A stretch of 64,000 nucleotides of DNA from a virus (taxonomy: Duplodnaviria; Heunggongvirae; Uroviricota; Caudoviricetes): the IMG/VR virus record IMGVR_UViG_3300044504_000033, positions 10,103 to 74,102 of that record; one strand, 5' to 3'. Numbering within the stretch: position 1 is the stretch's first letter; the number at the start of each line of letters is the position of its first letter. The notes beneath the pieces are model-generated. The model made no database searches and was not told the origin of the DNA. It was given only the letters and a program-made list of their open reading frames with translations. Below are positions 30,510 to 50,237 of this stretch, in pieces. Both the position numbers and the translations under genes were made by a program.

Positions 30510-31694
30510 TTAGGCATGGAATACGGGCAGAATACCCAAGCTCAGAGCCGAGGAAGCCTTACGTACCCACGTACCGGTCGTTGCGGCAAGAATGTCGGTA
30601 GCACCGGTAAGAACAGTCGGAGTTGCACTCTCAACAACGTAACCATACTCTGCATCACTCGGGAAAGCAATCTGAGAGCCAGCCCAGCTGTAACCTGCGG
30701 GAGCAAGCACATAACCCCAACGGTACCAGATGGAAGTCGTACCACCACCCTTGTAGGCAGCAGCTTGACGCTGAATCTCAACAGACTCAGGAACGGCCAG
30801 CGACTCCATAGCCAGAGCACCGGGAAGCGCAATAAAGGACGTCTTGGTACCGACAATGTCGACACCAGCACCAGTATTGATCTTGGTACGTTCAGCGGTG
30901 GAAAAGCCTTGGTTGGCACGAGTTTGGATGAGACGAAACTTACCCTGGAAGATGGTATTGAAAGTGATATTACCATCAGTTACACGATCGTCATCAACCA
31001 GATTGGCTGAACGAAGAGACGCAACAACTTCAGGTGAAGTGATCAGGTAGAAGTACTCAGGCTCGTAATCTTTGTAAGCCATACCGACAGCATTCAAGAA
31101 ACCTGCGGCACGTTGTGCACCCAGATTAGCGGCAGCGGCAGCAGTCACGAGAGCATTGGAACCGAGGTCGACATAGAAGCCATACTTGGAATCGGCAGGG
31201 TCATTGTCAAAGGTTTGGCCACCGAGACCGGTCGCACCGGAGCCTACAGCTGCACCATTGAGCATTTCGGAGAGAGCAACACCACGCAGCACGGCAAGAA
31301 TTGCATTATGCTCATCTTGTGCCTTGGTTTCGCCGAAGTCACGGCCAATCTTTGCCAGACCGTCTTCTTGGGTAACGACAGTCTGCATGTTCACCTTGGT
31401 GGCACCATGTGTACGGACGGTCTTGATGTAGTTCAGGAACTCGGAACTGTAGGTAGAGCCGGTGCCATCGGTGGAGTCGGTCAGTGACGCAACGTTGATG
31501 GTAGGGTTCATCGGCTTCTTCCAACGGAGTTGACCTACGAAGGTCTCAGTGTTGGTGTCGATGTCGGAGTTTCCACCGATGATGCCTGTGCCAGATAGTT
31601 TCTTGGCATTGGTGTAGGCTTCATCAGAGTAGGCACCGAGGGCTTCCTGCAAGACGTAGTTGGAAGCACCTGCGAGGTTTGTAATAGCGGGCAT
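30510..31694 (-). CDS. major capsid protein (HK97-fold, no protease, scaffold-dependent)
   Basis: 394 aa following a coiled-coil scaffold gene; composition typical of SPP1-type MCPs. Confidence 0.6.
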   Translation of the reverse strand: MPAITNLAGASNYVLQEALGAYSDEAYTNAKKLSGTGIIGGNSDIDTNTETFVGQLRWKKPMNPTINVASLTDSTDGTGSTYSSEFLNYIKTVRTHGATKVNMQTVVTQEDGLAKIGRDFGETKAQDEHNAILAVLRGVALSEMLNGAAVGSGATGLGGQTFDNDPADSKYGFYVDLGSNALVTAAAAANLGAQRAAGFLNAVGMAYKDYEPEYFYLITSPEVVASLRSANLVDDDRVTDGNITFNTIFQGKFRLIQTRANQGFSTAERTKINTGAGVDIVGTKTSFIALPGALAMESLAVPESVEIQRQAAAYKGGGTTSIWYRWGYVLAPAGYSWAGSQIAFPSDAEYGYVVESATPTVLTGATDILAATTGTWVRKASSALSLGILPVFHA

Positions 31695-31715: not shown

Positions 31716-32414
31716 TTATTTAGTGCGTAAGGTACCCGCTTCTGCTCGACGCAGCACTTCTGCTTGTGTCAATGCGAATACGGATTTACCAGCGTTAAGG
31801 TCGGCAGGTCCGTTTATCCTCGGATTACCTGGGCCTTGATTGATATTCGGTTTAAACATGAACTCATTTTCAGGATCTGCGGCGAATGCTACGATGTAGT
31901 CCTTGATACTGGTACCGGAGTTGTGGACCCATTGTCCATCTTCCTTTTGCACCAATTCACTGGTTATGTCGCGAAACGCACCATCTTGAGCTTTCTTATT
32001 ACGAAACTCGAGGGCAGACATTTCTTGGCGTACATCAATATCACGCGTAAGCTCAATATTGCGTTTAGCCAATACCTCATTACGTGCTTTCTCTTCTGCA
32101 AGCTGCAAATCATGTGCTTCTTTATCCTTTCCTTCTGCTTGCAAACGAGCGATTGTGGCATCTTTCTCTTTCTGCTCAAATTCAGCAATACGACGAAGTG
32201 CCTCGTCACGCCCTGCATAAGCCTTATCAAGCGAGTCTTTAATCGGAATCAGTGAAGCATCCACCTGAGCTTTTAAGGCTTCTTCAGGTGTCATGTCAGC
32301 GAGTTTCTGCTTAAGCTCTTCTTGAGCAGCTTCCAGAGCGGCTTTTTGTGTGATAAGTTCTTGTTGTTGGGCTTCAAGAGCTTCTTGAGCAGCTTTCAAT
32401 TCTTCTTCAGTCAT
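31716..32414 (-). CDS. scaffolding protein
   Basis: 232 aa, strongly alpha-helical A/E/K/Q-rich coiled coil (EELKAAQEALEAQQQELITQKAALEAAQEELKQ); positioned between the MuF-type protein and MCP. Confidence 0.55.
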   Translation of the reverse strand: MTEEELKAAQEALEAQQQELITQKAALEAAQEELKQKLADMTPEEALKAQVDASLIPIKDSLDKAYAGRDEALRRIAEFEQKEKDATIARLQAEGKDKEAHDLQLAEEKARNEVLAKRNIELTRDIDVRQEMSALEFRNKKAQDGAFRDITSELVQKEDGQWVHNSGTSIKDYIVAFAADPENEFMFKPNINQGPGNPRINGPADLNAGKSVFALTQAEVLRRAEAGTLRTK

Positions 32415-32507: not shown

Positions 32508-32526
32508 GGGTTAATTTAACGGGGTC
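32508..32526. promoter_or_regulatory. class I motif site 3 (GGGTTAATTTAACGGGGTC) between MuF-RNAP gene and scaffold gene
   Basis: ~95 nt upstream of the scaffold start codon. Confidence 0.5.
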
Positions 32527-32529
32527 TGA

Positions 32530-35500
32530 CTAACCCACTCCGTACCATCCAAAATCATGTTTGAAACCTGTGGGAATTTCCTTAAGGATATCATCTCTCA
32601 TGAGAATGTCTGTATCTGTGAGTAGTTTTCCGTCAATACGTGAGCGGCCCACAACAGGAATCAGCCCTGTCTCAATCGCTTCATTTAAGTATCTGTCATA
32701 GATTTCACGAGGAAGACCTCTGGCAAGCATCTCATCAAGAGTCATCTTAATCACATTCTTCTCAAGGGCATTTGCATAAGACTGTCTCAAGGCTTGTCTT
32801 GCTTGCAGCATATCGGCAGCATTTGCGAAGAATGCATCATGGATAGTTGACGTGGGTATACCATTCTTAGAACCCCATAAGTGAAATTTCTTAACAAGGA
32901 CAGCATCATTAGAGTGGTTACCATTTACGGCAAATGCTGTACGTGCTTTAGTGGCATCCGCGATATCATTTATCTTCCCACTCTTATTAATAATAGCCTC
33001 CCAAGGAGATATTTCAGTCTTTTGAGGAACTTGGAGAATATTAGTTATCCATTTACCATCTCTATCTTTATAGACAAGTCTCGCTTCAAAGGTCTGTGTG
33101 AAGTTTTGCTCAATAATCTTTCCATCAAAGTTGACCCAGGGGACATTTGTCCAACTCTTAGGTAGCTTATTGGCAATCATGAACTCGATCTCGTTAAGGG
33201 TCTTCAACTGAGCAATCTCGACTTTGAGATATGTAGCACCTGTCCTTCTTGCCTCTGGGGATTTAACACCAAAGAGGATTTCAGATAGAGTGCTTTTCTT
33301 ATCCCACGCCGCAAACCGTCTGAGTATCTTCTCAGAGACAGGTTCACCGGCCTTAATACCTAGAATCTCACTGAGCGTATCAGAGAGTACATAACCCTTT
33401 CGTGAACCACCGAGTAGCTTAATCTTCGCAATAGATTTCCAATCAAATGCACTATTTGACGGTTTTGCGTTGATGAGAAACTCTTCCGCAAGTCGTCCGA
33501 AGAATTTTGTAAAGTGCTTAAGGATAGGCACTTGCTCAGCCAGGTGTTCACTCATAAGCTTAGCAATAGCTTTAAAGTCCTCTGGAGTGACCACCTTGTC
33601 GTAGTTTGCAGACATCTTTGTTACGAGGTCTTTAGTCTTTGAATCAAGGAAATAAAGTTGTTCCAAGATATCATCACCTGGATCTAGACCTTTATTGAAG
33701 ATATCCTTAACATTTTCTCTAAGGGCTCTCAGCTCAAGTGTAGTGTCAGGGTCAAACCTCTCATATCTTGCGATACGTGCAGATATCTCATTCAACACAG
33801 TATCTCTATCTGAAGCTCTAACAACAAGAGTGGCTGTGTCTTTATCAAGAATCTTCGCAAGTTTGCCCTCCACATTAAGGATACCTGTACGTTCACCCGC
33901 GCCATAGAAAGTCACCATATTCTGTGCTTTAGCGGCCTTTCTTAAGTCTTTTTCAGTGAGTCCCAGCTTCTCATTAAGCTTCTTGAAACGAGGGTCATTG
34001 TAGGTTGCAGCAGCAATCTCGTCGTACAGACGTTTCTTTTGTGTGGTGGGAATTACATTACTAAGTTCTGCGAGTTGCTTATTACGTGTTGTCAGAGCAA
34101 TAATTTGGGCACCTGACGACGACGCATCCTGTTCAAGCGCGAGTGCCGTCTTATACTTATTCATCAATGTTAAGTTTGTGTAATCCCCTCTCAGATGAGC
34201 GTCAATCTTGGCAGATTCGAGAGCGAACCTGTAGAACTTACCAAGCTCCTCCCCCTCAATCATCGATGCTACAGGACTGTCGAGAATAGCTCGGATATCC
34301 CCAGGCTTACCTCTCAACATATGATTACCAATCTTCACCATCTCAGAGCGCCACTTGTCAGCTATTTTTTGTCGACCCGTGAAACTGAGAGAATTGTATG
34401 GCCCTTCGAAGGTATCATTCAGACCACCAAGGAAAGCACCTATCTGATCTTGAAGATTAAGGTAACCAGTCTCACCCAGTACCTTGCTGGCTTCCGTACT
34501 GAGAAATGGTCTGAATGTTTCACCTGATTGAGGGCTTATTAGACCCCTGTCATAGATACGTGCACGGTGATCGATAAATGGGTGATTACTGAACGTACTA
34601 TTCTTTGTACGTAACCATTCCATAGCCTTAAAGCGCTCATAAGAATCCCCACGAGATGTTATGTAATGACGGTACTCGTTTAGATTATTATAGTACTTAG
34701 CCTTTCCTTTATCATCCTGGAAGTCCAATAATTTCATCGTGAAATCGTAAAAGTCATCATCAACTCTGTATTTGGTCTTTGAAGCCCAGTTAAGTGCATT
34801 CACCATATCAGCATCAATAAAACCTTCGGGAAAATCACTGAAACTTGAAGTCGAGGTGATTGGAATACGAGTATCTTCGTAGCCAAGGAGACCACGGTCA
34901 ATGAAGTATGTCTTGTATCCTTTACGAAACACGAGACGATTCTCATCACTTACCACACTAACACGCAACCCTAATTCAACCTTACGAGTCAACTGGGAGT
35001 ATTTCTGAATCCTCGGGTCGGTTATCCTCAGGTTATATGAGAAGGTATCGTAGTAAGGGCCAAATAGAGCACCACTCATGCGACTTTTCATTCGACGCTT
35101 TTGAACACCATAGGTCTCAAGATTAAAGAACTGATTATTTGAGTTAAGAATATCAGAACCTAGAGTAAACCATTGGCGTCGTGTTCCATTCATGCTGGAC
35201 ATATTGTATAAATCACGTCCTAACATTGCAGCTAATTGGTCGAAGTCAGGAGAATCAGCGAGACTGAGTCTATGCGCAAATCGTAAGTAGAATTGTTGGA
35301 GGTCTTGGTCAGATAGCCTGAGTCTGAGCTTGACTGGGAGATGCTTGTCAAAAGTATCACGCAACTCACGCGCTATCTTCGGAGCTACACTATCTTCCCA
35401 TTTATTCTTCTCATAGATATTCTTGATGAAGTTGTCATGTAAGTCTTGTAATTGAACGGGACCAAGAACAGGGTCTATGTAGTTATCTTGTTTGAGTTTT

Positions 35501-37143
35501 TTGAGTAAGTCAGAGTCACGCCTCAGAGTCGTCTCAATGAAGTCGGAAGTGTTCATCACATCATACTTAATTTGGGCCTGTGACACTGCCTTAAAGTTAA
35601 TCCAAGGAGCTGGGTTCTCACGATATCTTGTAAAAAGTATCCGCAAATTATCTGCAACCACAGCTCTCTCGTTCACACTCATCTTACCCTCAAGACTGGT
35701 CATGAATGTCTTGATGAACTCTTTATCAGCAGTCTTAAGGACAGCACTCTCTTCAGTTAGTCTGAGGTTATTTGCAAGAGCACCTGGAGATGGTTGAAAG
35801 AGACGAGCATCATCATACTTCCCCGTCACGGGGTTGAATACCATTTGGTCTTCCCGAGGCAGTGTCTGGACAACGCGTCGTTTAGCTTGTCGCTTAGTCC
35901 CTATCAGGTTGCCCCGATAGTTAGTGAGAGATAGTGTACCGTCAAGCTCTCGCGTCTGAAGTATGTAATAGTCTTTCAGCGTCTGTCTCATCTTAGCGTC
36001 AGTAAAGAAGTCTTCAGGGGACGCAGCACCAAGTTGCATTGCATTTAGCTTATCCTTAGCTACAGCAAACTTATGAGTATTTCCTGGAGTCGTGTAAGAA
36101 GAGTCAGATAACTGGCGTAGTTCTCGAATACCTATCGAGTTACCCTCTGCATTGGTAAATTTAGAAATTGGCATCATACCACCTCTAAATAACTCAAGCT
36201 TCTGATAGTCTCCAAGATGTCTTAATTGAGTTGGCTTGTCTTGGCGCATCAGCCAATCGTTATAGGTCTCACGGAGTGGTGTCTGACCGTCATAAAATGC
36301 CTTCTGCTTATCGCTCAAACGACTCAGGTTACGACGTCTAACATGAGCAACACCTTCAAGATTTGATAAGTCATTCCATGCTTTAACGACAGGAGTAGTT
36401 GTCGAGCGGCAACCCCAGTGTGCCGGTGGCAGATGCTCGGTGTCCCCGATGGCGTAGATATGGGCGTCGCGGTGGATACAGATGTCCGTCGTGTAGGAGT
36501 CCATGATGGACACGTATTGCCAGCCGAGGAGAGCGGGTTCGTTGGCTGCGTAGACCTCATGGTCAGCTTGGGCATATATGCTTGTGATTGCAGTAGTTGT
36601 GAGCGTTCTAGCTCGGTTTCGGGTGATCCTATGGATCTTACCCTTACGAACATCCAAAGCGATTTGTTCTAAGCTGTCACCCTTAGCGACACCCTTTCTT
36701 ATTACAGTCTCTATAAGTTTCCTCTCGTTAACAGCGAGACCTGCCCAGCCTTGTGACAAAGTTCTATCCTTGTATAAGGGCTTGACGAGAACTAAATCTT
36801 CAGCTACACGTCGTGAGGGTCTCTGTGTCTTCCAGATACGCCCTATCGAATTCTCTATAGTCTGGTACGTGTATGACACTTGGTCTGCGACGAAACCTAG
36901 AAGAGAAGTCTTGCTTACATTATAAGCTTCCGTGATAGAGTTTTGTATCTCAACATCAATGGCGTCTCTCAGCAGTCTGAAGCCTTTATCAGACTTACTT
37001 GCATTGCGAATGAGGGCGTCGACACGAAGCCGATGGCCGTCAAAAACAACTTCTACCTTACCGTGTAGTCTACGTTCGTAGAGCTTTATCATCCCTGCTC
37101 TGTCGACTGCTCGGTCATAAATTTGTGTGTTACTGTTAATCAT
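32530..37143 (-). CDS. fusion protein: N-terminal MuF / SPP1 gp7-like minor head (portal-associated) domain + C-terminal T7-like single-subunit RNA polymerase domain (putative virion RNAP)
   Basis: MuF signature LLGWQYVSIMDSYTTDICIHRDAHIYAIGD...LPPAHWGCRSTTTPV near residue 200-250. RNAP motif A ALALEQDASSSGAQIIALTTRN, motif B RKAAKAQNMVTFYGAGERTG, motif C STIHDAFFANAADMLQARQALR in the last 500 aa. Gene lies between portal and scaffold as SPP1 gp7 does. Confidence 0.75.
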   Translation of the reverse strand: MINSNTQIYDRAVDRAGMIKLYERRLHGKVEVVFDGHRLRVDALIRNASKSDKGFRLLRDAIDVEIQNSITEAYNVSKTSLLGFVADQVSYTYQTIENSIGRIWKTQRPSRRVAEDLVLVKPLYKDRTLSQGWAGLAVNERKLIETVIRKGVAKGDSLEQIALDVRKGKIHRITRNRARTLTTTAITSIYAQADHEVYAANEPALLGWQYVSIMDSYTTDICIHRDAHIYAIGDTEHLPPAHWGCRSTTTPVVKAWNDLSNLEGVAHVRRRNLSRLSDKQKAFYDGQTPLRETYNDWLMRQDKPTQLRHLGDYQKLELFRGGMMPISKFTNAEGNSIGIRELRQLSDSSYTTPGNTHKFAVAKDKLNAMQLGAASPEDFFTDAKMRQTLKDYYILQTRELDGTLSLTNYRGNLIGTKRQAKRRVVQTLPREDQMVFNPVTGKYDDARLFQPSPGALANNLRLTEESAVLKTADKEFIKTFMTSLEGKMSVNERAVVADNLRILFTRYRENPAPWINFKAVSQAQIKYDVMNTSDFIETTLRRDSDLLKKLKQDNYIDPVLGPVQLQDLHDNFIKNIYEKNKWEDSVAPKIARELRDTFDKHLPVKLRLRLSDQDLQQFYLRFAHRLSLADSPDFDQLAAMLGRDLYNMSSMNGTRRQWFTLGSDILNSNNQFFNLETYGVQKRRMKSRMSGALFGPYYDTFSYNLRITDPRIQKYSQLTRKVELGLRVSVVSDENRLVFRKGYKTYFIDRGLLGYEDTRIPITSTSSFSDFPEGFIDADMVNALNWASKTKYRVDDDFYDFTMKLLDFQDDKGKAKYYNNLNEYRHYITSRGDSYERFKAMEWLRTKNSTFSNHPFIDHRARIYDRGLISPQSGETFRPFLSTEASKVLGETGYLNLQDQIGAFLGGLNDTFEGPYNSLSFTGRQKIADKWRSEMVKIGNHMLRGKPGDIRAILDSPVASMIEGEELGKFYRFALESAKIDAHLRGDYTNLTLMNKYKTALALEQDASSSGAQIIALTTRNKQLAELSNVIPTTQKKRLYDEIAAATYNDPRFKKLNEKLGLTEKDLRKAAKAQNMVTFYGAGERTGILNVEGKLAKILDKDTATLVVRASDRDTVLNEISARIARYERFDPDTTLELRALRENVKDIFNKGLDPGDDILEQLYFLDSKTKDLVTKMSANYDKVVTPEDFKAIAKLMSEHLAEQVPILKHFTKFFGRLAEEFLINAKPSNSAFDWKSIAKIKLLGGSRKGYVLSDTLSEILGIKAGEPVSEKILRRFAAWDKKSTLSEILFGVKSPEARRTGATYLKVEIAQLKTLNEIEFMIANKLPKSWTNVPWVNFDGKIIEQNFTQTFEARLVYKDRDGKWITNILQVPQKTEISPWEAIINKSGKINDIADATKARTAFAVNGNHSNDAVLVKKFHLWGSKNGIPTSTIHDAFFANAADMLQARQALRQSYANALEKNVIKMTLDEMLARGLPREIYDRYLNEAIETGLIPVVGRSRIDGKLLTDTDILMRDDILKEIPTGFKHDFGWYGVG

Positions 37144-37152: not shown

Positions 37153-37551
37153 CTAAACGACTCTCTTAATTCGGAAGAAGAACCTTTGGAAAGGATTTGT
37201 AAACTGGAATAACCAAGATTCTAAACTTCGATTGAATTCTGAACGAATCCCCGAATGATCAGACAAGTGAATTGTACGGATTGCATAATACTCAAGTTTC
37301 GTAGCTCTGTAACCTAATGTTGTCTCGTATAAAAGACCTGTAGAAACCTCACGATTGACATAGTGGAGGATTGGCATACTATCTTCGATATAGATGACTT
37401 CAACAACTTCAAACCCCTCATTTGTACGACTAAACTCAACTGCATTATCAAAACATTTATAGTTGAACAGTCCAGCCTTTGGGAGTACATCCACCATAGT
37501 GTATCTTGAACGGACATGCATAATGATGCGATTGTATATTTTCTGTTTCAT
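37153..37551 (-). CDS. hypothetical protein (132 aa) between portal and MuF-RNAP
   Basis: ORF in the head module. Confidence 0.4.
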   Translation of the reverse strand: MKQKIYNRIIMHVRSRYTMVDVLPKAGLFNYKCFDNAVEFSRTNEGFEVVEVIYIEDSMPILHYVNREVSTGLLYETTLGYRATKLEYYAIRTIHLSDHSGIRSEFNRSLESWLFQFTNPFQRFFFRIKRVV

Positions 37552-37625: not shown

Positions 37626-39206
37626 TTACTTAGGCTCAAGCTTGTTTGCGAAATCTGAAGTGCCCTTGTCACCCGCCTTAGGGAGCAACAAGTCATCACC
37701 ATTGATTTCTTTTGTACCCTCCTCATCATCGTAATCGGGGGCAATCATATCATTATGCTTAAGGATCTGCAGCCAAATAGAGCGAGGAATAAGACCTTCT
37801 TGATACCATTCTGTGGCTAGTCGCAACCAGTCAGCTCCCAGAGGTATTGGGTTGAAGTCTGAAGAGAGTTTAAAGTCAATGTCGGATTCAGTCAATGTGA
37901 GCTTGTAACGCCAATTAAGCATCATCACAACGACTTGTTTCATCGTATCACTGATCTTCGTATTCAGAGTTCCCAATTGTGCAGTTTGGGCAGCATTGCG
38001 TATCTCAAGTGCAACCCCAGATTGTGCAGATTCAGGACTTAGCATACGTAGGCCAAGTTTAGCCATCTCTTCAATAGAGCTTGCGATTGCTCTGTCCATG
38101 TCTTGCAGAGCATCCGTCGGTGTTTTTAGACAATCAACAGAATCACCTCTACGCAAGCGTATCCATGTTCCGAGTCCGCCTGAAACAACGTCGTCAAAGT
38201 CATCATCAGTCATGTCAGACATGATAACAGGGGTGTACGTGGCTGCACCATAGAGCAAATGGTTACGACGGCTCATCTTGTTGTATAGCGCAATCTCCTT
38301 ATCGATGATCGCGGAGAGGAGGGGTGCCGCTACATCAAAATTACCGTTAAGAGGCCACGCAGGGATATACGCAAGCCGCTTACCATTCATCATAATCTCG
38401 GTGAAAGGACTGACTGTAGTATCCTCCTCAAATCCTTCGGGGGCATCCCCTGGATTTAAATACTGGACACCGTTGACGATAGGTGCATTTGACACTACGC
38501 GCTTGCTATGATACGTACGTATTTGGTAGAATCCAGCTTCATCCAACTCATGGACCCATACAGTGTCCCTTAAGGTTGGGTGGTACTCACCCACTTCAAG
38601 AACCTCTTCGTAACCACGTAACACTACATACTTAAGGTGCTCTTTCCCATTTACGCCAGGGGCTGTGCTCCAGTTAATGACAGTATCCGCAGACCAGAGA
38701 GTCGCATATGGACAAATAGCGAGACGCTCTTCACTTGAAAGATCTTCCGGGCTAGCTACATGTGGGTAACTTACATGAAGCCACCCACGACTGGTTTGGA
38801 TCTCTTCGGTAAGAGCCTTATCGAGCCATGAAGTAATAGAAGTGCCGTCTTGCGAGAACGAATTCATAATCCAGTCGGCAGCCCCTTCTGGAACACCCTC
38901 AGGTAATGTGAGAACCGGTTGCTTTCGTAAGAGACCTCCTACAAGCATCTTTGCGAATTGTGCAGTAATGCCAGGAAGTTCAGCCTCAGCCTTGTAGAAG
39001 TTGTATTGCTCCTGTGTCATTGAAGGTGAGAACGGAATAAGTAAGTTAGTGAAGGTATTTACATCGAGTTCACCATCGAACTCTTTAACATAACGCTCAC
39101 CATTACACATAGCCCTGCTGATATCCCAGAGGCGCTTTACAGATTCATACTGGGCATTGGGGCTGGCTACCGTCTTTGTTGTTTTGGCAGCGTTAGCTAC
39201 AGACAT
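37626..39206 (-). CDS. portal protein
   Basis: 526 aa, position immediately upstream of the MuF-type gene; acidic C-terminus. Confidence 0.6.
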   Translation of the reverse strand: MSVANAAKTTKTVASPNAQYESVKRLWDISRAMCNGERYVKEFDGELDVNTFTNLLIPFSPSMTQEQYNFYKAEAELPGITAQFAKMLVGGLLRKQPVLTLPEGVPEGAADWIMNSFSQDGTSITSWLDKALTEEIQTSRGWLHVSYPHVASPEDLSSEERLAICPYATLWSADTVINWSTAPGVNGKEHLKYVVLRGYEEVLEVGEYHPTLRDTVWVHELDEAGFYQIRTYHSKRVVSNAPIVNGVQYLNPGDAPEGFEEDTTVSPFTEIMMNGKRLAYIPAWPLNGNFDVAAPLLSAIIDKEIALYNKMSRRNHLLYGAATYTPVIMSDMTDDDFDDVVSGGLGTWIRLRRGDSVDCLKTPTDALQDMDRAIASSIEEMAKLGLRMLSPESAQSGVALEIRNAAQTAQLGTLNTKISDTMKQVVVMMLNWRYKLTLTESDIDFKLSSDFNPIPLGADWLRLATEWYQEGLIPRSIWLQILKHNDMIAPDYDDEEGTKEINGDDLLLPKAGDKGTSDFANKLEPK

Positions 39207-40569: not shown

Positions 40570-42042
40570 TTAGCTTATTGTATACTGATAAATTTTCGAG
40601 GTCTGGTCACCAACAAGAAATAACTTATCTTCTGCTGCGTTTAATGCCAGTCCATATGCTAATGTTTCGCCTGTTGGGATTGCCACAGGGGCACCATCGT
40701 ATGTGGCCGAACTCACTAACCAACCAGTTGATAGTGTATACTTGTGGATAGAACCACTCCCTAGACCGCACATATACAACGTCAAGCCATCTGAAGAGAT
40801 ATCAAGGCCTCTTGGAGATGGATCTTGAGAGCCGACATAGAGAGATATACCCGCATACGTGCAAGTAGACAGTGTGTATGGAGTTGTCAGTGTATACTGG
40901 TAGATAGTTCCAGAACTACCACCGACCATATATAATTTAGTGCCATCTGTGTTATATTTCAGTTCTCTTGTGACAGGATCTTGCCCCACAACGGACAGTG
41001 AAACTGCGTTATCAGTTGCGGTAGTGATATCCCAGGCCGTAGACAGCACCCACTCTTGGAGTTCATCAACAAGCGAGTTCGTAAGTAGTAGACGAGTGCC
41101 GTCAGAACTAAACGTAAAACCATATATACCGTTGCTAGTTGCGCTAAAGTCTTTTGCTGCAACCCAACTCACACTCGTTATGTCCCATGCAGGTGACATT
41201 GAACACTCATCTATCATCTTGTTATCACGGATTATATATAACTTCAGCCCATCTGATTTTATATAAAGCCCGTTATATGCACCTGAGGATGGTACCAATG
41301 ACCAGTATATGCCGGAATATACAAGAGGGGGCGGTGGGGGTGGTGGGGGTGCAGAATTAGTCCCTGATAGCACAGCAGTGAATACCCCATCATCTGTATT
41401 GGAAGATGCCATTGTAGCGGTTATGGTGTATGCATTTCTTGTATCAGCAGTTGGTACCACTCTCGCACCAGATACATTTAAATATGTTTCAGATACTACA
41501 TCAAAGTCCTCAACAGTGTTTCCATATACAACAGTATCCGTTAATGAACCGAAGCTAATTGCAGAGTCCCATGGTCCTATATTAACGGTAGTAGGAAACG
41601 TTGTGGCAGTAAGCGCTGTGTAGTTATCATCAGAGTTGCTGAGAGTAACGTCACCTCCAATAACTCGGTACACGCCTATACCACCTCTCGCGGGGTTTGT
41701 ATTATTATATGTCACAACAATGGTTGCGGATGTGGCCGCCACTCCTGAAATCTTAAACAATCCAGCTGCCATTCTGCCTGTGGCTGCTCTGGTAAATAAC
41801 TCAGTCATTGAAACGCCGTCGAGGGTGATTCCTGTAATTCCTGCAGTGGTTCCAGTTACAGTTTGACCAACAGCGGCAATTATAATGGTGTCTATCGTTG
41901 CTGTACCACCAGTAGATACTCCTGTATATGTGTGAACCGCTCCATTGCCAGTATTGATAGCGTTTGTGATATATTCTAGGTATATATCCCCATTACCAAC
42001 CGGCGCAACTGGCGCTTTTCCAAGCATATTAGAAAGAAACAT
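40570..42042 (-). CDS. fibre / receptor-binding-like protein with polyproline linker and C-terminal beta-propeller-like YxYT repeats
   Basis: 490 aa; PPPPPPPPP (41326-41351); repeated ...KLYxx...G.IYQYTL / SIHKYTLS / KIYQYTIS blades. Confidence 0.4.
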   Translation of the reverse strand: MFLSNMLGKAPVAPVGNGDIYLEYITNAINTGNGAVHTYTGVSTGGTATIDTIIIAAVGQTVTGTTAGITGITLDGVSMTELFTRAATGRMAAGLFKISGVAATSATIVVTYNNTNPARGGIGVYRVIGGDVTLSNSDDNYTALTATTFPTTVNIGPWDSAISFGSLTDTVVYGNTVEDFDVVSETYLNVSGARVVPTADTRNAYTITATMASSNTDDGVFTAVLSGTNSAPPPPPPPPLVYSGIYWSLVPSSGAYNGLYIKSDGLKLYIIRDNKMIDECSMSPAWDITSVSWVAAKDFSATSNGIYGFTFSSDGTRLLLTNSLVDELQEWVLSTAWDITTATDNAVSLSVVGQDPVTRELKYNTDGTKLYMVGGSSGTIYQYTLTTPYTLSTCTYAGISLYVGSQDPSPRGLDISSDGLTLYMCGLGSGSIHKYTLSTGWLVSSATYDGAPVAIPTGETLAYGLALNAAEDKLFLVGDQTSKIYQYTIS

Positions 42043-42935: not shown

Positions 42936-44633
42936 CTAAAAGGTTGTGTATACACCGGCGTAACCGGGTTCTACATAAGAGTCAGAACAGTAAGTATTCA
43001 TATGAACAATACCGGCTTCTGATAAGATTACATTTTCCGATGAAATCACCGTAGGCTTGATTGAAATATTCTCAGTCGAAGCTATGGTCTCATTGAATAT
43101 CGTGTTAAACAGCATCGAGAGTACTTCTGATAAGATTACATTTTCCGATGAAATCACTGTAGGCTTGATTGAGATATTCTCAGTCGAAGCTATGGTCTCA
43201 TTGAATATCGTATTAAACAGCATTGAGAGTACTTCTGATAAGATTACATTTTCTGATGAAATCACCGTAGGCTTGATTGAAATATTCTCAGTCGAAGCTA
43301 TGGTCTCATTGAATATCGTGTTAAACAGCATCGAGAGTACTTCTGATAAGGTTGTGGTATCAGCTCTCCCTGTGGTCACATCTAGCGCAATAGTCTCCAG
43401 TGTTACGGCAAGTTCTGAAAGACTTTTTCCTACGTGCGCGTATTGTTGATCATCAATACCTCCAAGGAAGTCATCAAGGACATCCAATTGGTCAAGGATA
43501 TCTTGAGCGGTCACCACGCCTGTGAACACTTCTTCTGATGTTGTGATCACATCTGATGGACTTATATTGATGGTCAGACCGAGCAGCTCACTCACGATTG
43601 CGATATCAGTGGTATACTTTCCATTGACCTTCAAAAGGGCTTCTGTAAGAGTGCTTGCATCAATGACACCCTTATCATTACTGAAAGTCATAGTGTCACT
43701 GTGGCTACAACTTTCGATAAACTGCTTGGTGGTCGTCAAAGCAACTACATCGCTATTATTGAAGACATCCTCGAGATATGTGCTGCAAATAAACTCAAGA
43801 GTCTCCACAACACTACCTGTATCAAGGAGCATCTTACCAATCTGCGCATACTGTTGGTCATCAATACCTCCGAGGAAGTCATCAAGGGCATTAATCTGCT
43901 CATTGAAGTTCTTCATCAGGGATAATGTAGCGGTATCTGAAGCACTCAAGGACTCCTCTTGAACACCACGAAGAAATTCCAGACTTAAACTCTCAGTGAC
44001 TTGTGCGTTATCCTCTAGGTACTTTCCGGATACCATGATAAGAGCTTCCACCAAAGTGCCTGTGTCAAGCACTCCGGCTATGTTATCAAAGACCACAGTC
44101 TCGCTTGAAGAGGTTAGTTCAAGGAAGCTCTTTGTGGTGCTGAGAGCTACAAGATCACTATTGCTGAACGCGTCTTCAAGGTACTTATCACAGACCATTT
44201 CAAGAAGTTCCTGAGATGTGGTAGTGTCCAGCACCATCTTACCAATATGTGCGTATTGTTGGTCATCAATACCTCCTAGGAAGTCATCAAGGGCATCAAT
44301 CTGCTCAAGGAAAGCAAGCTGCACATCGAAAGACAGCTCATCAGAAACAGTATGTGCGTCTTGGGCTTGTTTTGAGAAGGTAAATAATAGTGTGTCAAGA
44401 ACGATTGGGTATTCAGCAAGCGCTTTAAAGAATGCTGGGTATGCGGTGGATAAGAAAGAGTTGCCATTCACATTGACATTTGCGATCTTACCCGCCTCAT
44501 TTCCGCTTAAGGTTGCATTTGAGGTATTAGTCACAAGTGTAGATACAGGACCTACTTTACTGCTCAGCGTAGGTGTATTTATTCTTGCGGTCAACTTTTC
44601 AATCGTGGTTAAAATCTCTTTCTTATCAGCCAT
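42936..44633 (-). CDS. repeat-rich fibre-like protein (565 aa) with three 36-aa tandem repeats and three ~135-aa repeats
   Basis: SEVLSMLFNTIFNETIASTENISIKPTVISSENVIL x3; LDDFLGGIDDQQYA(H/Q)IGK x3. Confidence 0.4.
   Translation of the reverse strand: MADKKEILTTIEKLTARINTPTLSSKVGPVSTLVTNTSNATLSGNEAGKIANVNVNGNSFLSTAYPAFFKALAEYPIVLDTLLFTFSKQAQDAHTVSDELSFDVQLAFLEQIDALDDFLGGIDDQQYAHIGKMVLDTTTSQELLEMVCDKYLEDAFSNSDLVALSTTKSFLELTSSSETVVFDNIAGVLDTGTLVEALIMVSGKYLEDNAQVTESLSLEFLRGVQEESLSASDTATLSLMKNFNEQINALDDFLGGIDDQQYAQIGKMLLDTGSVVETLEFICSTYLEDVFNNSDVVALTTTKQFIESCSHSDTMTFSNDKGVIDASTLTEALLKVNGKYTTDIAIVSELLGLTINISPSDVITTSEEVFTGVVTAQDILDQLDVLDDFLGGIDDQQYAHVGKSLSELAVTLETIALDVTTGRADTTTLSEVLSMLFNTIFNETIASTENISIKPTVISSENVILSEVLSMLFNTIFNETIASTENISIKPTVISSENVILSEVLSMLFNTIFNETIASTENISIKPTVISSENVILSEAGIVHMNTYCSDSYVEPGYAGVYTTF
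43018..43341. repeat. 108-bp tandem repeat x3 (near-identical copies) within the 565-aa gene
   Basis: Units start at 43018, 43126, 43234; 2-4 mismatches per unit. Confidence 0.9.
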
Positions 44634-45222: not shown

Positions 45223-45419
45223 TACGCCTCTCCACCCTTATCGAGGATTTCAATCTCGACATTCGTACTAAACTTCGCAGCATTGTCACTACCGCCGTGT
45301 TCGCGGAGAACCATTAGAGCATGGCCCTTAAGCGCCTCCAGTATCTTACCTTCTTGTTCGATTGAAGTGATTGCCAACCCATACATTGAGATGCCTACTT
45401 CGAGTGTAGTTATGTTCAA
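45222..45419 (-). CDS. hypothetical small protein (65 aa)
   Basis: Start overlaps the terminase stop (ATGA). Confidence 0.3.
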   Translation of the reverse strand: MNITTLEVGISMYGLAITSIEQEGKILEALKGHALMVLREHGGSDNAAKFSTNVEIEILDKGGEA

Positions 45420-46831
45420 AAGTTAAATCCTCGTTTGGTTCGTTTAATGCCTGCCAGAACAGGAAATAGATACTCAGTACCATAACGAATACCGTCAGAG
45501 AAATGCTCCACGCCAGCTGATTTGTCTATAGTGGCAATATCTGGGTTTCTGTCGGTCCATACAGTACGTTCTACTGAGGTTATCGCGCCTGCACATCTTG
45601 GATGGAAATACATGTCGATGTCACCGGCGGCAGTCATCAGTTTACGGTTGACGGCATTGGCACTATCTACAATGCCTGGAGAGGCTACATGTGCTCTTAC
45701 GTCCAAACCATGGCTACGTAGGATACTAAAATCAGTAGCCCCAACAGCCGCAGAGGTTTTTCGAGCGTTACCAGTAGGATCAGGGTATACATAAATCTTA
45801 TGTCCTTTATACTTCTCGACGATATACTTAGCAAGAGTTTCTGTGTCGGGATGTCCTTTCACTTCATCAAGGAAATGCATTTGATTGCCACGTAGAGCAA
45901 ACATCGTTGACGCTTGGATGCCCACGTTGAAGTCGATACATACATGAACATCTTCGCCCTTCACGCCAGCTTCAGGCTTTCTAAAGTCAGGTAAGTCTGT
46001 ACGTACGTGAATCTTTCTGTCGAAACAGTAGAAGACGCTATTGCCTGATTCCTCGAATGATGCGAGATACTCAGAAGCGAACCTTATTGGGTCCATCTTA
46101 TGGCGTAACTTCTCAATCTCTTCAGGTTCGAGTAAAGGAGACGCAAGGTAGTCATAATGATATGAACCCCAAGATGGATCTGTCTCTCGAAAGTTGAACA
46201 TATCATAAAAGTAATTGTAGCCTTTCGGAGTTCCTATCGTGAGTGAACGTCCCGGTGATGGTGCATTATACAACCGTGCACGTTTGGGTGACCATCTCGT
46301 GGCTATACAAGGCTCAATGATTGATTCCCATGCATCCTGCAGACCGACACCCTTGGTCCATGAGCAGGGTTCGTCATTGACAACAAAGTAAGCACCCTTT
46401 CCACGCATCCTCTCAATAGCTTCATAAGAAAGGAGTCTTAATTCGACGTTATCACCGAACCAGAAACGGCCCTTATCACGTGACGATTTAATAGCATACT
46501 CGCCAAGACCTAATTCATCATTAAGGAGGGGGTAGTAGATGTCTGTTACTTGTTCGTAAGTCGGCGCAATGATATACACATTCTTATTGGGCACTTTAGG
46601 TCGGAGTGTGATGAGTTCGCCGATGGCGGTGGCACCTGCAACTGCAGCAAGATGTGACTTACCCCACCCCCGAGAACAGTTGACAACGCCATGTCTAACT
46701 GTCTTCTTGACGAACATATCTTCGAACACCTCACTTTGACCTGCGTGAAGGTTAATGTCCATTAGACATTTTGTGCTTAAAGAAATCCTGTAGCGTAGCC
46801 AAATTGTGGAACGACTTACCACCATTAACAT
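45416..46831 (-). CDS. terminase large subunit
   Basis: 471 aa; Walker A-like NCSRGWGKSHLAA; C-terminal nuclease-like acidic motifs; upstream of structural genes. Confidence 0.85.
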   Translation of the reverse strand: MLMVVSRSTIWLRYRISLSTKCLMDINLHAGQSEVFEDMFVKKTVRHGVVNCSRGWGKSHLAAVAGATAIGELITLRPKVPNKNVYIIAPTYEQVTDIYYPLLNDELGLGEYAIKSSRDKGRFWFGDNVELRLLSYEAIERMRGKGAYFVVNDEPCSWTKGVGLQDAWESIIEPCIATRWSPKRARLYNAPSPGRSLTIGTPKGYNYFYDMFNFRETDPSWGSYHYDYLASPLLEPEEIEKLRHKMDPIRFASEYLASFEESGNSVFYCFDRKIHVRTDLPDFRKPEAGVKGEDVHVCIDFNVGIQASTMFALRGNQMHFLDEVKGHPDTETLAKYIVEKYKGHKIYVYPDPTGNARKTSAAVGATDFSILRSHGLDVRAHVASPGIVDSANAVNRKLMTAAGDIDMYFHPRCAGAITSVERTVWTDRNPDIATIDKSAGVEHFSDGIRYGTEYLFPVLAGIKRTKRGFNF

Positions 46832-47189
46832 GCACCATATAAGCTACCCGTTCCAATGAGGCTTTCTGCGCTTTAGAGAATGTCATTCCCTCATCTTCAT
46901 TGAGTAACACAAATATTGTCTTATCAGGGCGTCGGTGGCTGTCATCGATAGCCTCGGCTATGGCGTATACACCGAGTAACTTTGGAGTAATCACATAGAG
47001 GCAATAGTCAGAGATAGTCCGCTCCAGCACTTCACGTTCTTGTGCTTCCGAGTTCCAATTGTCAACAACCGGATTGAAAAAGGAGACACCTTCAATATTG
47101 GAATTGGTGAGTTCATCACGCCATTTGCTACCGTTACATGTACCACCCATGAATACTTTAATCATCTTCGTATACCTCTTCGATATCAT
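46752..47189 (-). CDS. nucleoside 2-deoxyribosyltransferase-like protein (hypothetical)
   Basis: 145 aa; N-terminal IKVFMGGTCNGSKWRDEL resembles the KIYLAGP...W pocket of that fold. Could alternatively be the small terminase. Confidence 0.3.
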   Translation of the reverse strand: MISKRYTKMIKVFMGGTCNGSKWRDELTNSNIEGVSFFNPVVDNWNSEAQEREVLERTISDYCLYVITPKLLGVYAIAEAIDDSHRRPDKTIFVLLNEDEGMTFSKAQKASLERVAYMVHVNGGKSFHNLATLQDFFKHKMSNGH

Positions 47190-47610
47190 CCTCGTGGCTA
47201 CTGAGGAGAAATGTTGAATTATCCTTATGAAGGTTTATTACCATGGGCATTCGCTTTTTCTCTTCGACGAGAATAGTGTTTGGCACTTTAGCATAACCGT
47301 ATGAAAGGAGATTTGCTGACACCTTCTCGATTTGTGAGAGGACACCTATGTGAGACATTGAGCTGTACCTGATAGTTTTTGACTCAATTGGTTCACCTAG
47401 GTCATCAAGGTAAACTGTGACGCTACCACTATCTCTCAACTCACACCAAAAAGTATCTTCGGCACATAAACGATTATAGAGCAACACCAATCTTTCGATA
47501 GGGTCAAACCCTAAATCACGCAATCTTTCGGCACTCTTACTAAACCCTGCTCGTCGCACTGAAGGGGCTAATGCGTAAGGCATCATTTTACTTATATCTG
47601 TATCTGCCAT
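47158..47610 (-). CDS. putative terminase small subunit (by position)
   Basis: 150 aa acidic C-terminus, first gene after a long structured leader, upstream of the large terminase. Confidence 0.3.
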   Translation of the reverse strand: MADTDISKMMPYALAPSVRRAGFSKSAERLRDLGFDPIERLVLLYNRLCAEDTFWCELRDSGSVTVYLDDLGEPIESKTIRYSSMSHIGVLSQIEKVSANLLSYGYAKVPNTILVEEKKRMPMVINLHKDNSTFLLSSHEDDIEEVYEDD

Positions 47611-48015
47611 ATATGGAACCTCGGCTGGTCTGTATGTTGTGCTAAATGCAAATAAGAAAAATCAGAAACTAAATTTCCCTCCGGGTACCTTGAAGTACTC
47701 GCGTAGTCCACGAAGTATTAAAAGTGTCTTCCCACTTAGCTCGAATGCCCCTCCGAGTTAACTTTCCACGGTTCAGCTTCATGGTGAATGTTTCATGATT
47801 TCTCGGCATGATGATCTTGAGAGGGCTTATTGGTTAATCTAGGTTATAATGATTATAATTATTGACTGATTAACCTCTTGAGAGACCCTCTGGGTACCTC
47901 TGAGGTACCCTCTATAGGTTTATCTCTTATACTTAATCACTATAACTGATACCATCTCAGTACCATCTTAGTACCCTTAAAGGTACCCCCTTAGGTTACC
48001 CCTTAGGTTATATTT
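47611..48015. promoter_or_regulatory. repeat-rich noncoding region (~400 bp): inverted repeat GGTTAATC/GATTAACC flanking AT-rich core, CTTGAGAG direct repeats, GGGTACC-N5-GGTACCC palindrome, TAGTACC/TAGGTTA repeats
   Basis: No ORF; repeats read directly; candidate packaging (pac/cos) or origin region adjacent to the terminase genes. Confidence 0.4.
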
Positions 48016-48052
48016 AAGGGAGGGACGGTCTCTAGGTTAATTTAACGGGGTC
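48016..48052. promoter_or_regulatory. class I motif site 4 with upstream GGGAGGGACGGTC box
   Basis: AAGGGAGGGACGGTCTCTAGGTTAATTTAACGGGGTC; upstream of the terminase region. Confidence 0.5.
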
Positions 48053-48089
48053 TCTGAATCGAATATGCGACATCCGTGTTAGTAATTTT

Positions 48090-48554
48090 TCAAACGGCTT
48101 CCAGCTGGTACAGCAACGTGGATTTCAACCACCCGCGGTGTGCCTCTTGTTCGGTGTCGTACTGTCCCACGTATGCCGTTTTATTACCGTGCTTTTTTAT
48201 TTGCGCGATCCACTTCCCCCTTCGTTTGCACCAGTAAATGCCTTTGTATCTTGAGCTTGAATTGTACTCAGCTTCATAGAGAGTGATCCTCTCGTCTAAG
48301 TCGATTTCTTTAAGATTTGCGAGGCTTATATTGCGGGGGTTGCCATCGATAAAGGTCACATCTAGAAAGCCATCAGGTTCATTATGGAGCAGCCATACGA
48401 TACGATGTAATTGCCTCAAACGACCCTCCCAGTAGACCACAGGCAGTCCCTCTTCGCCCAACAGGACACGGACCTCTGAGTTATACATAAGTAGCTTATC
48501 ACCCTCCATCCTGAATACTTCACGAATTTCTTTTACTAACAGTATGTCCTGCAT
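48090..48554 (-). CDS. HNH homing endonuclease with AP2 DNA-binding domain
   Basis: FIDGNPRNISLANL (HNH_3-type) plus YKGIYWCKRRGKWIAQIKKHGNKTAYVGQYDTEQEAHRGW (AP2-like). Confidence 0.65.
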   Translation of the reverse strand: MQDILLVKEIREVFRMEGDKLLMYNSEVRVLLGEEGLPVVYWEGRLRQLHRIVWLLHNEPDGFLDVTFIDGNPRNISLANLKEIDLDERITLYEAEYNSSSRYKGIYWCKRRGKWIAQIKKHGNKTAYVGQYDTEQEAHRGWLKSTLLYQLEAV

Positions 48555-48558
48555 GTTA

Positions 48559-48735
48559 TTACCTCATAATGAGTAGATAGATTATCCAAATGATAAGTAC
48601 GATGCCTGACGCTATCCCATTCATAACCATTGAAGCGACTCCGAATTTATCAGGTTCCACCACAAGATTCGCTATAAGAAATACCAGACCGGACAGTATG
48701 ATGATTGACAGTTTCCACAATGATATTGAAAGCAT
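48559..48735 (-). CDS. unlisted small membrane protein (58 aa, two TM) translationally coupled to HNH gene
   Basis: Manual translation MLSISLWKLSIIILSGLVFLIANLVVEPDKFGVASMVMNGIASGIVLIIWIIYLLIMR; RBS GGAGAA 5 nt upstream. Confidence 0.35.
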   Translation of the reverse strand: MLSISLWKLSIIILSGLVFLIANLVVEPDKFGVASMVMNGIASGIVLIIWIIYLLIMR

Positions 48736-48746
48736 GTGATTCTCCG

Positions 48747-48811
48747 AAAAAAAAAAAAAATAAGGGACACACTTCCAACACCACCCCGAAGGATGACGTT
48801 GGAAGTGTGTC
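48747..48811 (-). terminator. strong intrinsic terminator (minus strand): 14-bp perfect stem GACACACTTCCAAC/GTTGGAAGTGTGTC, 18-nt loop containing CCCCGAAGG, then CCTTA + U14
   Basis: Stem 48766-48779 / 48798-48811; A14 at 48747-48760 on plus strand. Confidence 0.6.
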
Positions 48812-48918
48812 GAAGATTGTTGTTGAGACTGAACGGCTTAGCTATGATACTACCAGGCCGTAATTTGAGTACATGCCACATAATGATTAGCTATACCTAC
48901 CTCGATATAATATCCAGG

Positions 48919-49152
48919 TTATGTATCAAAATCAGTTTCAACTAGCACCGGCTTTGTTAATGCCTCTTTCATTCTGGATAATATGTCATGCCCTGCGTTT
49001 TCCTCTGCAACATCCCACACCACTACAGCAGGGTCGCCACTATACAAAACAGGCTTACCGTTTTCGTTGTAATGAACTTCATGTATCTGCCTGAAAGTGT
49101 TATCGTTTGCCTCAACAAATTCAATTACCCTGTAGTTCCAAGTTCCACTCAT
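48919..49152 (-). CDS. hypothetical protein (77 aa)
   Basis: ORF in the small-gene array. Confidence 0.35.
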   Translation of the reverse strand: MSGTWNYRVIEFVEANDNTFRQIHEVHYNENGKPVLYSGDPAVVVWDVAEENAGHDILSRMKEALTKPVLVETDFDT

Positions 49153-49240
49153 AGTCAGCCCTTTAATTAGCCAGAAGTCCCGCTTTACTTCGCATTCAGT
49201 CAGCGCTATATCGTGATGTTGCTCAGACCTTAGCTGGCCT

Positions 49241-49507
49241 TCAACGTAACATCAGTGTGCGCCCTGCGTCAGTCAGCGCGTATCTGTGCCACGGGTACGG
49301 TTCATCCTTGGCAACGATCAATCCGCGCTGCTCAAGGTCTGCAATCGCGGTACGCAACCACGAAAGCTCACTCATGTCCCATGTGCTGACTCTTGGGCTA
49401 TTTGCCAAAACAGAAAGCACATCATCCGCGCCACGATGACCGCGTTTTAATTCTGATGCCGCCCCGCTAAAATAATCAATGTGCATAGTGTTGTTGCTCC
49501 ATAGCAA
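49241..49507 (-). CDS. hypothetical protein (true start probably ATG ~49486, MHIDYFSG...)
   Basis: GC-richer ORF; the track start codon is TTG; an ATG with RBS GGAGCAACAACACT lies 21 nt downstream. Confidence 0.35.
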   Translation of the reverse strand: MLWSNNTMHIDYFSGAASELKRGHRGADDVLSVLANSPRVSTWDMSELSWLRTAIADLEQRGLIVAKDEPYPWHRYALTDAGRTLMLR

Positions 49508-50194: not shown

Positions 50195-50237
50195 ACAGTC
50201 CGGCTCGTTCCTACCAGCTCATGCGGCTGCTTATTGG

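Follow-up and report, generated by a model that had tools for sequence, protein, structure and literature searches.

RNA polymerases (RNAPs) packaged in the phage head are rare, being known from N4-like podoviruses, jumbo phages of the phiKZ/AR9 type, and crAss-like phages, and each of these cases has revealed a distinct escape from host transcription and has given useful enzymes. The virion RNAP (vRNAP, gp50) of coliphage N4 (Schitoviridae) is a distant member of the T7-like superfamily. In the N4 scheme, which employs three polymerases, vRNAP is paired with RNAPII (PMC4496689, available text), and vRNAP itself, about 3,500 amino acids (aa) long, carries a central RNAP flanked by N-terminal ejection and C-terminal encapsidation domains (PMC5512222, available text). 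In phage SPP1, gp7 is held firmly by the portal gp6, which directs a few gp7 copies into the inside of the procapsid, and virions without gp7 are only about 25% infectious, gp7 supporting the initiation of infection (PMC6316719). The same route is thought to serve gp7-like (MuF) proteins that carry C-terminal toxins in delivering this cargo to the host (PMC6316719; PMC5512222, available text). Here, we analyzed a stretch of 64,000 nucleotides (hereafter, the window) from a Caudoviricetes virus (IMG/VR record IMGVR_UViG_3300044504_000033, positions 10,103 to 74,102), in which the gene at positions 32530-37143 on the minus strand encodes a 1537-aa protein joining a MuF/SPP1-gp7-type region to a single-subunit RNAP. 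By analogy with the systems above, this MuF-RNAP fusion is probably a portal-bound, packaged, and ejected early-transcription RNAP, similar to N4 vRNAP in function and of independent origin.

The fusion gene is a single uninterrupted open reading frame (ORF), and the identical protein (P0001) was found on a JGI contig of 74,102 bp. The N-terminus (MINSNTQIYD...) aligned from residue 1 or 2 in more than 100 homologs, so the start codon is taken to be correct. An earlier note on this DNA, made from the sequence without database searches, had claimed an N-terminal MuF/SPP1 gp7 domain ending in a segment with TTDIC and a T7-like RNAP in the last ~550 residues. Profile searches recovered both families above the curated Pfam cut-offs, with Phage_Mu_F (PF04233) matching aa 144-249 at 49.2 bits (cut-off 29.6; E=1e-12) and RNA_pol (PF00940) reaching 47 bits (cut-off 22). 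The PHROGs matches were to head morphogenesis (phrog_241, E=4.9e-52, aa 50-357) and RNA polymerase (phrog_414, E=1.4e-23), and the motif strings were located at aa 218 (TTDIC), 238 (LPPAHWGCRSTT), 1006 (DASSSGAQ), 1068 (RKAAKAQNMVTFYGAG), and 1434 (IHDAFF). Motifs A, B, and C do lie in the stretch named earlier, but the RNAP is not confined to it, since it covers approximately aa 434-1537 and has its T/DxxGR motif at aa 858-862. Judged by its sequence, the protein belongs to the MuF family and to the T7-like RNAPs alike. All coding segments described here are on the minus strand, as is every gene of the window. The MuF/SPP1-gp7-type head-morphogenesis region (aa 50-357, 36073-36996) is supported by phrog_241, PF04233, and its invariant residues, and contains the Pfam core (aa 144-249, 36397-36714). 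It is followed by a helical connector (aa 358-433, 35845-36072). Two hinges here, aa 349-355 and aa 401-427 (residues 1-27 of the polymerase model), are of low confidence, the predicted local distance difference test (pLDDT) falling below 50 in both. The remainder is the single-subunit RNAP module (aa 434-1537, 32533-35844), whose modelled fold comprises a T7-like N-terminal domain, thumb, palm, and fingers.

The MuF signature T..C ... PP.H..CRS..P is kept in the fusion protein and its relatives, with T218, C222, P239, P240, H242, C245, R246, S247, and P251 invariant across the 22-sequence alignment, which reaches down to 21% identity. The AlphaFold2 model of aa 1-460 had a pLDDT of 86, and a six-frame translation of the window contained no MuF homolog other than the fusion. 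The protein resembles SPP1 gp7, Mu gpF, and the MuF-toxins in its N-terminal family, its signature residues, the portal-adjacent position of its gene, and the arrangement of MuF with a C-terminal cargo. It differs from the MuF-toxins in that the described cargos are toxins, RNases, ADP-ribosyltransferases (ARTs), RelA/SpoT, and similar proteins (PMC5512222, available text), whereas the fusion carries a 1,100-aa transcription enzyme. Moreover, no immunity-like gene follows the fusion gene, the next gene being a conserved scaffold gene.

The AlphaFold2 model of aa 401-1537, built with 81 sequences, had a mean pLDDT of 81.3 and a predicted template modelling score (pTM) of 0.78, with disorder only in the first 27 residues and a few loops. 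When this model was compared with the PDB using Foldseek, the top matches were the human and yeast mitochondrial RNAPs and T7 RNAP (E=1.7e-18 to 1e-15; alignments of 1,000-1,300 columns). The model was aligned with the T7 and mitochondrial RNAPs over ~540-570 residues, and the sequence identity of the module to these enzymes is 12-17%. The values of the model comparison were 18.2 for yeast mitochondrial RNAP, 17.0 for T7 RNAP, 13.7 for human mitochondrial RNAP, 11.1 for N4 mini-vRNAP, 11.0 for N4 RNAPII, 9.7 for the isolated N4 gp50 polymerase domain, and about 7-8 for family-A DNA polymerases. A profile of 22 family members likewise matched T7 RNAP (E=1.7e-22), the mitochondrial RNAPs (~1e-18), and the N4 RNAPII subunits (5e-7 and 5e-5), while N4 vRNAP was not matched by this profile at E<=1. 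A single-sequence search of PDB sequences gave only a marginal match to T7 RNAP (E~0.1), so the fused polymerase must be very divergent. The modelled fold and the profile matches together indicate that the module, as predicted, is a complete T7/mitochondrial-type single-subunit RNAP with a right-hand fold and a T7-type N-terminal domain, outside the N4 vRNAP branch. Besides the low identity, the fusion differs from the T7 and mitochondrial RNAPs in being joined to a head protein, in being encoded in a structural module, in having K1069/K1072 rather than R/K in motif B, and in the insertion hot-spot that its relatives have just before motif A. Neither the profile search nor the model comparison gave any specific sequence or structure relationship to N4 mini-vRNAP, and the fusion also differs from N4 vRNAP in its length (1,537 aa), its N-terminal MuF region, and the lack of any domain C-terminal to the polymerase. 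The earlier description of the enzyme as like N4 vRNAP but T7-like can therefore be kept as a functional likeness, but the contrast was mis-worded, since N4 vRNAP is itself T7-like, and the fusion is rather the closer of the two to T7 and mitochondrial RNAP.

The motifs of the module were compared among 22 sequences with 21-52% identity to the window protein, in which R862, D1006, K1069, K1072, Y1080, G1081, D1413, and D1436 are invariant polymerase columns. The T/DxxGR motif (D858-H-R860-A-R862, 34558-34572) is aligned to T7 D421-W-R-G-R425, with D858 present in 18/22. Motif A (aa 1004-1013, EQDASSSGAQ, 34105-34134) contains the catalytic D1006, aligned to T7 D537, and motif C (aa 1434-1439, IHDAFF, 32827-32844) contains the catalytic D1436, aligned to T7 H811-D812, with H1435 in 18/22. 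Both aspartates, on which the earlier RNAP claim had hinged, are present in all 22 sequences. Between them, motif B or O-helix (aa 1068-1083, RKAAKAQNMVTFYGAG, 33895-33942) is present where the earlier note had placed it, although its initial Arg is not a conserved residue, the invariant basic pair being K1069/K1072. The K-x7-YG spacing of K1072, Y1080, and G1081 equals that of T7 K631, Y639, and G640. A tyrosine at the T7 Y639 position fits an RNA polymerase rather than a DNA polymerase, as it concerns the selection of ribonucleoside triphosphates. The NGNHSND segment (aa 1407-1413, 32905-32925), with H1410 in 19/22, is aligned to T7 FVHSQD (H784). A beta-hairpin region between motifs B and C (aa 1333-1373, 33025-33147; strands at model residues 933-973) is paired by the profile alignment with ~T7 residues 720-770, around the specificity loop, and from this positional equivalence we infer that it recognises the promoter. 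Among 120 closer homologs, the best-conserved stretch was aa 1001-1100, covering motifs A and B, with a mean identity of 0.87-0.92 compared with 0.43-0.75 for most other blocks. The invariance of the catalytic residues down to 21% identity and the peak of conservation at motifs A and B point to purifying selection that has maintained catalysis and has kept Tyr, not Phe, where the sugar is selected, as expected of a catalytically competent fused polymerase.

Regarding its distribution, a word-index search yielded at least 299 homolog clusters. The best 120 of these were 60-100% identical to the window protein, nearly all had both Pfam domains, and many were on contigs of 65-90 kb; where the source gave a name, it was 'SPP1 gp7 family putative phage head morphogenesis protein' or 'minor capsid protein'. 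When the polymerase part alone was searched exhaustively against 1.84 billion representatives, 166 proteins were obtained at E<=1e-3, among which all full-length matches (1,264-2,073 aa) had the polymerase at the C-terminus. In a sample of 22 divergent members, MuF was found in 22/22, and RNA_pol individually reached its cut-off in 18/22. IMG/VR contained at least 481 confirmed fusion loci. The annotated phage collection had the fusion in three phages only, namely EBPR siphovirus 1, with 60% identity, and two roseophages with 31%, DSS3_VP1 (protein QGH74596.1) and DSS3_PM1, in which it is annotated as 'minor head protein-like protein', and a megablast of 20 kb of the window against phage genomes returned no match. 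Judging from these homologs, the MuF-RNAP fusion is ancient, common, and unrecognised. Some relatives carry in-frame inserts of 60-145 aa, of at least four unrelated kinds, at a hot-spot 19 aa before motif A (query aa ~987). The carriers are P0013, P0031, P0035, P0044, P0059, P0077, P0078, P0083, P0084, and P0103, while P0053 has an insert at aa ~1102, and L025 and L043 also carry inserts. Inteins were rejected as an explanation, given the missing Cys/Ser...His-Asn boundaries and the variety of unrelated kinds. An assignment to ParB-like or GNAT domains was also rejected, as Pfam returned nothing for the DGxHRL inserts and one FR47/GNAT match was below threshold (E=0.0013; 19.1 bits against 22.1). 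The inserts at aa ~987 resemble the accretion of accessory effectors in 'polyvalent' injected proteins.

The fusion gene is situated in a structural module with the order terminase, two large ORFs of unknown function, portal, small ORF, fusion, probable scaffold, coat, head-tail genes, a tape-measure-sized ORF (2,251 aa), and tail genes, followed by small ORFs, a stand-alone RNAP, a family-A DNA polymerase, and an exonuclease. The terminase gene is located at 45416-46831. The upstream neighbour and presumed docking partner of MuF is the portal gene (37626-39206; phrog_145, E=6.3e-56), whose product shows 43-44% identity with its counterparts in DSS3_VP1 and EBPR siphovirus 1. Between the portal and fusion genes lies a small conserved ORF of 132 aa (37153-37551; phrog_6596 of unknown function, E=6.8e-32), and small ORFs fill the same slot in relatives. 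Downstream, the probable scaffolding gene (31716-32414, 232 aa) encodes a coiled-coil-like protein whose role is proposed from its position, and it is homologous to the gene between MuF-RNAP and coat in DSS3_VP1 and EBPR siphovirus 1. It is followed by the major capsid protein gene (30510-31694; phrog_247 major head protein, E=6.3e-17), with a product 42% identical to the DSS3_VP1 'main coat protein'. The order portal, small ORFs, fusion, scaffold, and coat is common to DSS3_VP1, EBPR siphovirus 1, and two metagenomic contigs (L005 and L006), and portal, MuF, scaffold, and coat is the order of SPP1 (PMC6316719). The tape-measure-sized gene, together with the siphovirus morphology of DSS3_VP1 (PMC8323127, available text), supports the view that this is a long-tailed phage. 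Since the window and DSS3_VP1 have in common the head module, the exonuclease, and, at 34% identity each, the free RNAP and the DNA polymerase, the window derives from a distant relative of the Naomviridae. Past the window start (L008 5107-8690), genes for a Toprim-DnaB primase-helicase and a class II ribonucleotide reductase were found, like those of the replication and nucleotide-metabolism block of DSS3_VP1.

The second polymerase of the window is a canonical T7-like RNAP of 754 aa (7040-9304; PF00940 E=2.7e-65; phrog_414 E=1.7e-111), 34% identical to the annotated RNA polymerase of DSS3_VP1, so that the layout of a fused and a free enzyme is found in both the window and DSS3_VP1. This comparison covers the window and DSS3_VP1, the EBPR siphovirus 1 record being partial and ending in tail and lysis genes, and a single-sequence scan of IMG/VR for the free RNAP returned three loci, none on contigs listed for the fusion. 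A recent duplication of the free RNAP as the source of the fusion was rejected, as the two polymerases showed only motif-level similarity, in BLASTP (E=0.017) and in hhalign, which paired motif A only (probability 1%). An 18-nt motif, GACCCCGTTAAATTAAYC, occurs in five copies in the window compared with 0.08 expected, all intergenic and all on the coding strand, and is likely to be a phage-RNAP promoter. One copy (GACCCCGTTAAATTAACC, 32509-32526, minus strand) lies 3 nt past the stop codon of the fusion gene, upstream of scaffold and coat, where it would make scaffold and coat more strongly expressed than the low-copy portal and fusion. The other four, at 5709-5726, 12703-12720, 48035-48052, and 63331-63348, are likewise on the minus strand; in two of them, at 12.7 kb and 48.0 kb, the likeness continues downstream for another ~25 nt, as GACCGTCCCTCCCTT(T/A)AATATA. 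The motif was absent from the EBPR siphovirus 1 and DSS3_VP1 loci. A second promoter class, ACATAACC, had three intergenic copies, which is not above chance by our own estimate, and is not claimed here. Sigma-70-like promoters in the small-gene region at 46-64 kb were not enriched (37 compared with 35.8 expected), and this, like the 18-nt motif, gives weak support to the transcription programme proposed below.

As in the case of N4 vRNAP, the fused enzyme belongs to the single-subunit T7-like superfamily, its gene lies among late and virion genes, and a capsid-carried early polymerase is what we propose here. For its later genes, N4 encodes a further T7-like RNAP (PMC4496689 and PMC13434306, available text), to which the enzyme at 7040-9304 would correspond. 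In the proposed mechanism, the MuF/gp7 domain would dock on the portal during procapsid assembly, making the fusion a low-copy internal head protein, and, with MuF docked, the covalently attached polymerase would be brought into the capsid. On infection, the protein would leave through the portal and tail channel together with the DNA, and the ejected polymerase would then transcribe the first phage genes without host RNA polymerase. The early products may include, or lead to, the stand-alone RNAP, which would take charge of middle and late transcription, probably reading the GACCCCGTTAAATTAAYC promoters, one of them boosting scaffold and coat directly after the fusion gene. A polymerase encoded within the late head operon would be most useful if carried to the next cell, the same logic as applies to the N4 vRNAP gene. 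From these likenesses and the gene order, we infer packaging, ejection, early-gene specificity, and the pairing of polymerases with promoters.

Several observations weigh against this proposal. Virion proteomics is absent from the DSS3_VP1 papers, which in their available text never mention an RNA polymerase, and no family member is shown there to be virion-associated. The 175-kDa protein must unfold to pass a siphovirus tail that already holds the tape-measure protein; the precedents for such passage known to us (N4 vRNAP and T7 gp16) are all in podoviruses. No distinct early-promoter class was found in the intergenic regions, and the sole significant motif precedes the replication, structural, and small-gene blocks alike. 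The MuF model (aa 1-460) had no meaningful match in the PDB (best Foldseek E=0.2), where there is apparently no solved MuF structure for comparison. R1068, by its spacing the equivalent of T7 R627, is variable across the family, although the adjacent K1069 is invariant. Finally, about 6 kb of the 74-kb genome lie outside the analyzed sequence, 4.3 kb having been recovered beyond the window start and none past its end.

An enzyme packaged and ejected in this way could alternatively make a replication primer, or pull the genome into the cell by transcribing it, rather than express genes. Both T7 and N4 internalise DNA by transcription, T7 and mitochondrial RNAPs can prime, and this genome does not depend on the fusion to express its genes, since it encodes a complete canonical RNAP as well. 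Furthermore, of the nucleic-acid polymerases injected as part of 'polyvalent' proteins, primases are the most frequent (PMC5512222, available text). We nevertheless consider this role unlikely, since the phage has its own Toprim-DnaB primase-helicase just beyond the window, and the full T7-like N-terminal domain and the specificity-loop-like hairpin of the model suggest promoter-specific initiation; DNA pulling is, in any case, compatible with early transcription. Another possibility is that the fusion stays in the producing cell, having a late role tethered to the portal or procapsid, e.g., in coupling transcription to packaging, or that MuF is cleaved off and the polymerase left behind. The position of the gene, which implies expression together with the late structural genes, and the lack of proteomic evidence for a virion location in the available text of the literature would both suit such a role. 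However, MuF/gp7 proteins are directed to the inside of the procapsid (PMC6316719), none of the genes between those for portal and coat was recognised as encoding a prohead protease, and a stand-alone RNAP is already there for intracellular transcription. In addition, a covalent fusion kept down to 21% identity and in at least 481 loci is hard to explain without a delivery function, so retention in the producing cell appears improbable compared with delivery to the next one. Much less credible is the idea that the polymerase part is a catalytically dead relic serving as a DNA-binding or structural head protein. The 12-17% identity to T7 RNAP, the single-sequence PDB match at E about 0.1, and the variable R627 equivalent would fit a relic, but the metal-binding Asp residues, the motif-B Lys, the Tyr-Gly pair, the T/DxxGR Arg, and the H/D of NGNHSND are invariant or nearly so and lie in the most conserved segments. 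That the long ORF is an assembly or gene-calling artefact joining two genes can be dismissed, despite the annotation of EBPR siphovirus 1 as gp47 and gp49 with an HNH gene between them, as the ORF is uninterrupted in the window and in more than 100 independent metagenomic clusters (protein lengths 1,494-1,775 aa) and the EBPR split is due to a group I intron-like element.

An 850-nt element (L001 11190-12039) splits the fusion gene of EBPR siphovirus 1. It contains an ORF for an HNH endonuclease and a group I intron core (RF00028, E=1.6e-8; 40.5 bits, under the gathering score of 50). Across it, the exons join precisely at ...KAQNMV|TFYGAG..., within motif B, which shows that the GenBank gp47 'head protein' and gp49 'hypothetical' are one split gene. 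Elements of 0.4-0.9 kb, up to four per gene, also interrupt the gene in other relatives (L026, L028, L029, L032, and L050), the intron type having been identified for the EBPR siphovirus 1 element only. The sites are at aa 1073/1074, 1077/1078, and 1079/1080 in motif B and at ~880, ~1039, and ~1408, and the exons are collinear. In genes for essential enzymes, the best-conserved stretches are the typical homing sites of mobile introns. Insertion at catalytic motifs with collinear exons is a pattern typical of essential enzymes.

The proposed delivery of an RNAP by MuF would combine a virion RNAP with MuF cargo delivery, a combination for which we found no prior description in the literature searchable, in which subscription journals are thinly covered; the earlier note had likewise known of no described example. 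In the available text of the polyvalent-protein survey, virion RNAP modules occur only in N4-like phages and no MuF-RNAP is listed (PMC5512222), and the available text of the MuF polymorphic-toxin paper mentions no polymerase (PMC5576092). RNA polymerase is unmentioned in the available part of the single-particle genomics paper on Naomiviridae, and that of the 2026 N4 structure paper contains neither MuF nor a vRNAP in long-tailed phages. The phages AR9/PBS2 and phiKZ, with their packaged and non-virion polymerases and independence of host RNAP (PMC9209446 and PMC10612078, available text), offer a functional analogy, but their enzymes are multisubunit beta/beta'-like RNAPs with a fold unrelated to that of the fusion. 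A broader view is that a globally spread clade of long-tailed phages, including the Naomviridae with deoxyuridine-containing DNA (dU-DNA), runs a host-RNAP-independent programme begun by a capsid-delivered MuF-RNAP and continued by a free T7-like RNAP. Packaging of a single-subunit RNAP would then have arisen a second time, independently, and siphoviruses would have their first case. We hold the chances of this wider picture to be evenly balanced. If true, all three known dU-DNA lineages (PBS1/AR9, the PhiR1-37-type jumbo phages, and the Naomviridae) would arrive with a polymerase of their own, which would tie the modification of the genome to the packaging of a polymerase. Such a compact enzyme of ~1,100 aa, nearer to T7 than N4 vRNAP is and on the simplest known capsid-targeting tag, would be a surprise for specialists; it is widespread, with hundreds of environmental relatives, and testable in a cultured, tractable model, DSS3_VP1 on Ruegeria pomeroyi. 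The fusion raises the questions of how a large folded enzyme is loaded via MuF-portal contacts and threaded through a siphovirus tail, whether MuF can serve as a general capsid-cargo tag, and whether dU or otherwise modified genomes need a dedicated polymerase. It also raises that of which promoters a new branch of single-subunit RNAPs uses, relevant to orthogonal transcription tools. It further corrects an annotation gap, as databases name the fusion proteins only 'SPP1 gp7 head morphogenesis' or 'minor capsid protein'.

With respect to nucleotide chemistry, the cultured relatives DSS3_VP1 and DSS3_PM1 have dU-DNA (PMC8323127, available text), and the experimentally characterised deoxythymidine monophosphate (dTMP) phosphatase (Dtm) of DSS3_VP1, of the YfbR-like HD 5'-deoxynucleotidase family, supports dU-DNA synthesis (PMC12697855). 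The window encodes a YfbR-like HD 5'-deoxynucleotidase (1695-2240; PF12917 E=1e-10), homologous to the DSS3_VP1 ORF at L003 7071-7625. As this homolog is in the same family as Dtm, the window phage may deplete dTMP and carry dU or another thymidine replacement, although no homolog of the DSS3_VP1 deoxycytidine triphosphate/monophosphate (dCTP/dCMP) deaminase was found in the window.

Among other features of the window, the two ORFs between terminase and portal (42936-44633, 565 aa, and 40570-42042, 490 aa) matched neither Pfam nor PHROG families. Within the 565-aa ORF, a 108-nt unit is repeated in tandem three times in near-identical form (43016-43353), and another repeat, of ~405 nt, is present three times (43411-44312). 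The accessory genes include those encoding an SPFH/Band 7 protein (59709-60968; PF01145 E=5e-8), a PcfJ-like protein (55694-56818; PF14284 E=3e-9), and a SegE-type GIY-YIG homing endonuclease-like ORF (184-657; Pfam match on L008). Terminator-like hairpins were enriched at 46000-64000 (29 compared with 12.7 +/- 3.9 expected), mostly on the coding strand, and a hairpin with a perfect 20-bp stem was located at 48766-48811. Finally, about eight copies of a 12-nt tandem unit, CTACAGGTGCTG, at 5035-5130 encode a short 4-residue peptide repeat inside a 217-aa ORF (5012-5665), which has a homolog in DSS3_VP1 (L003 13620-14249).

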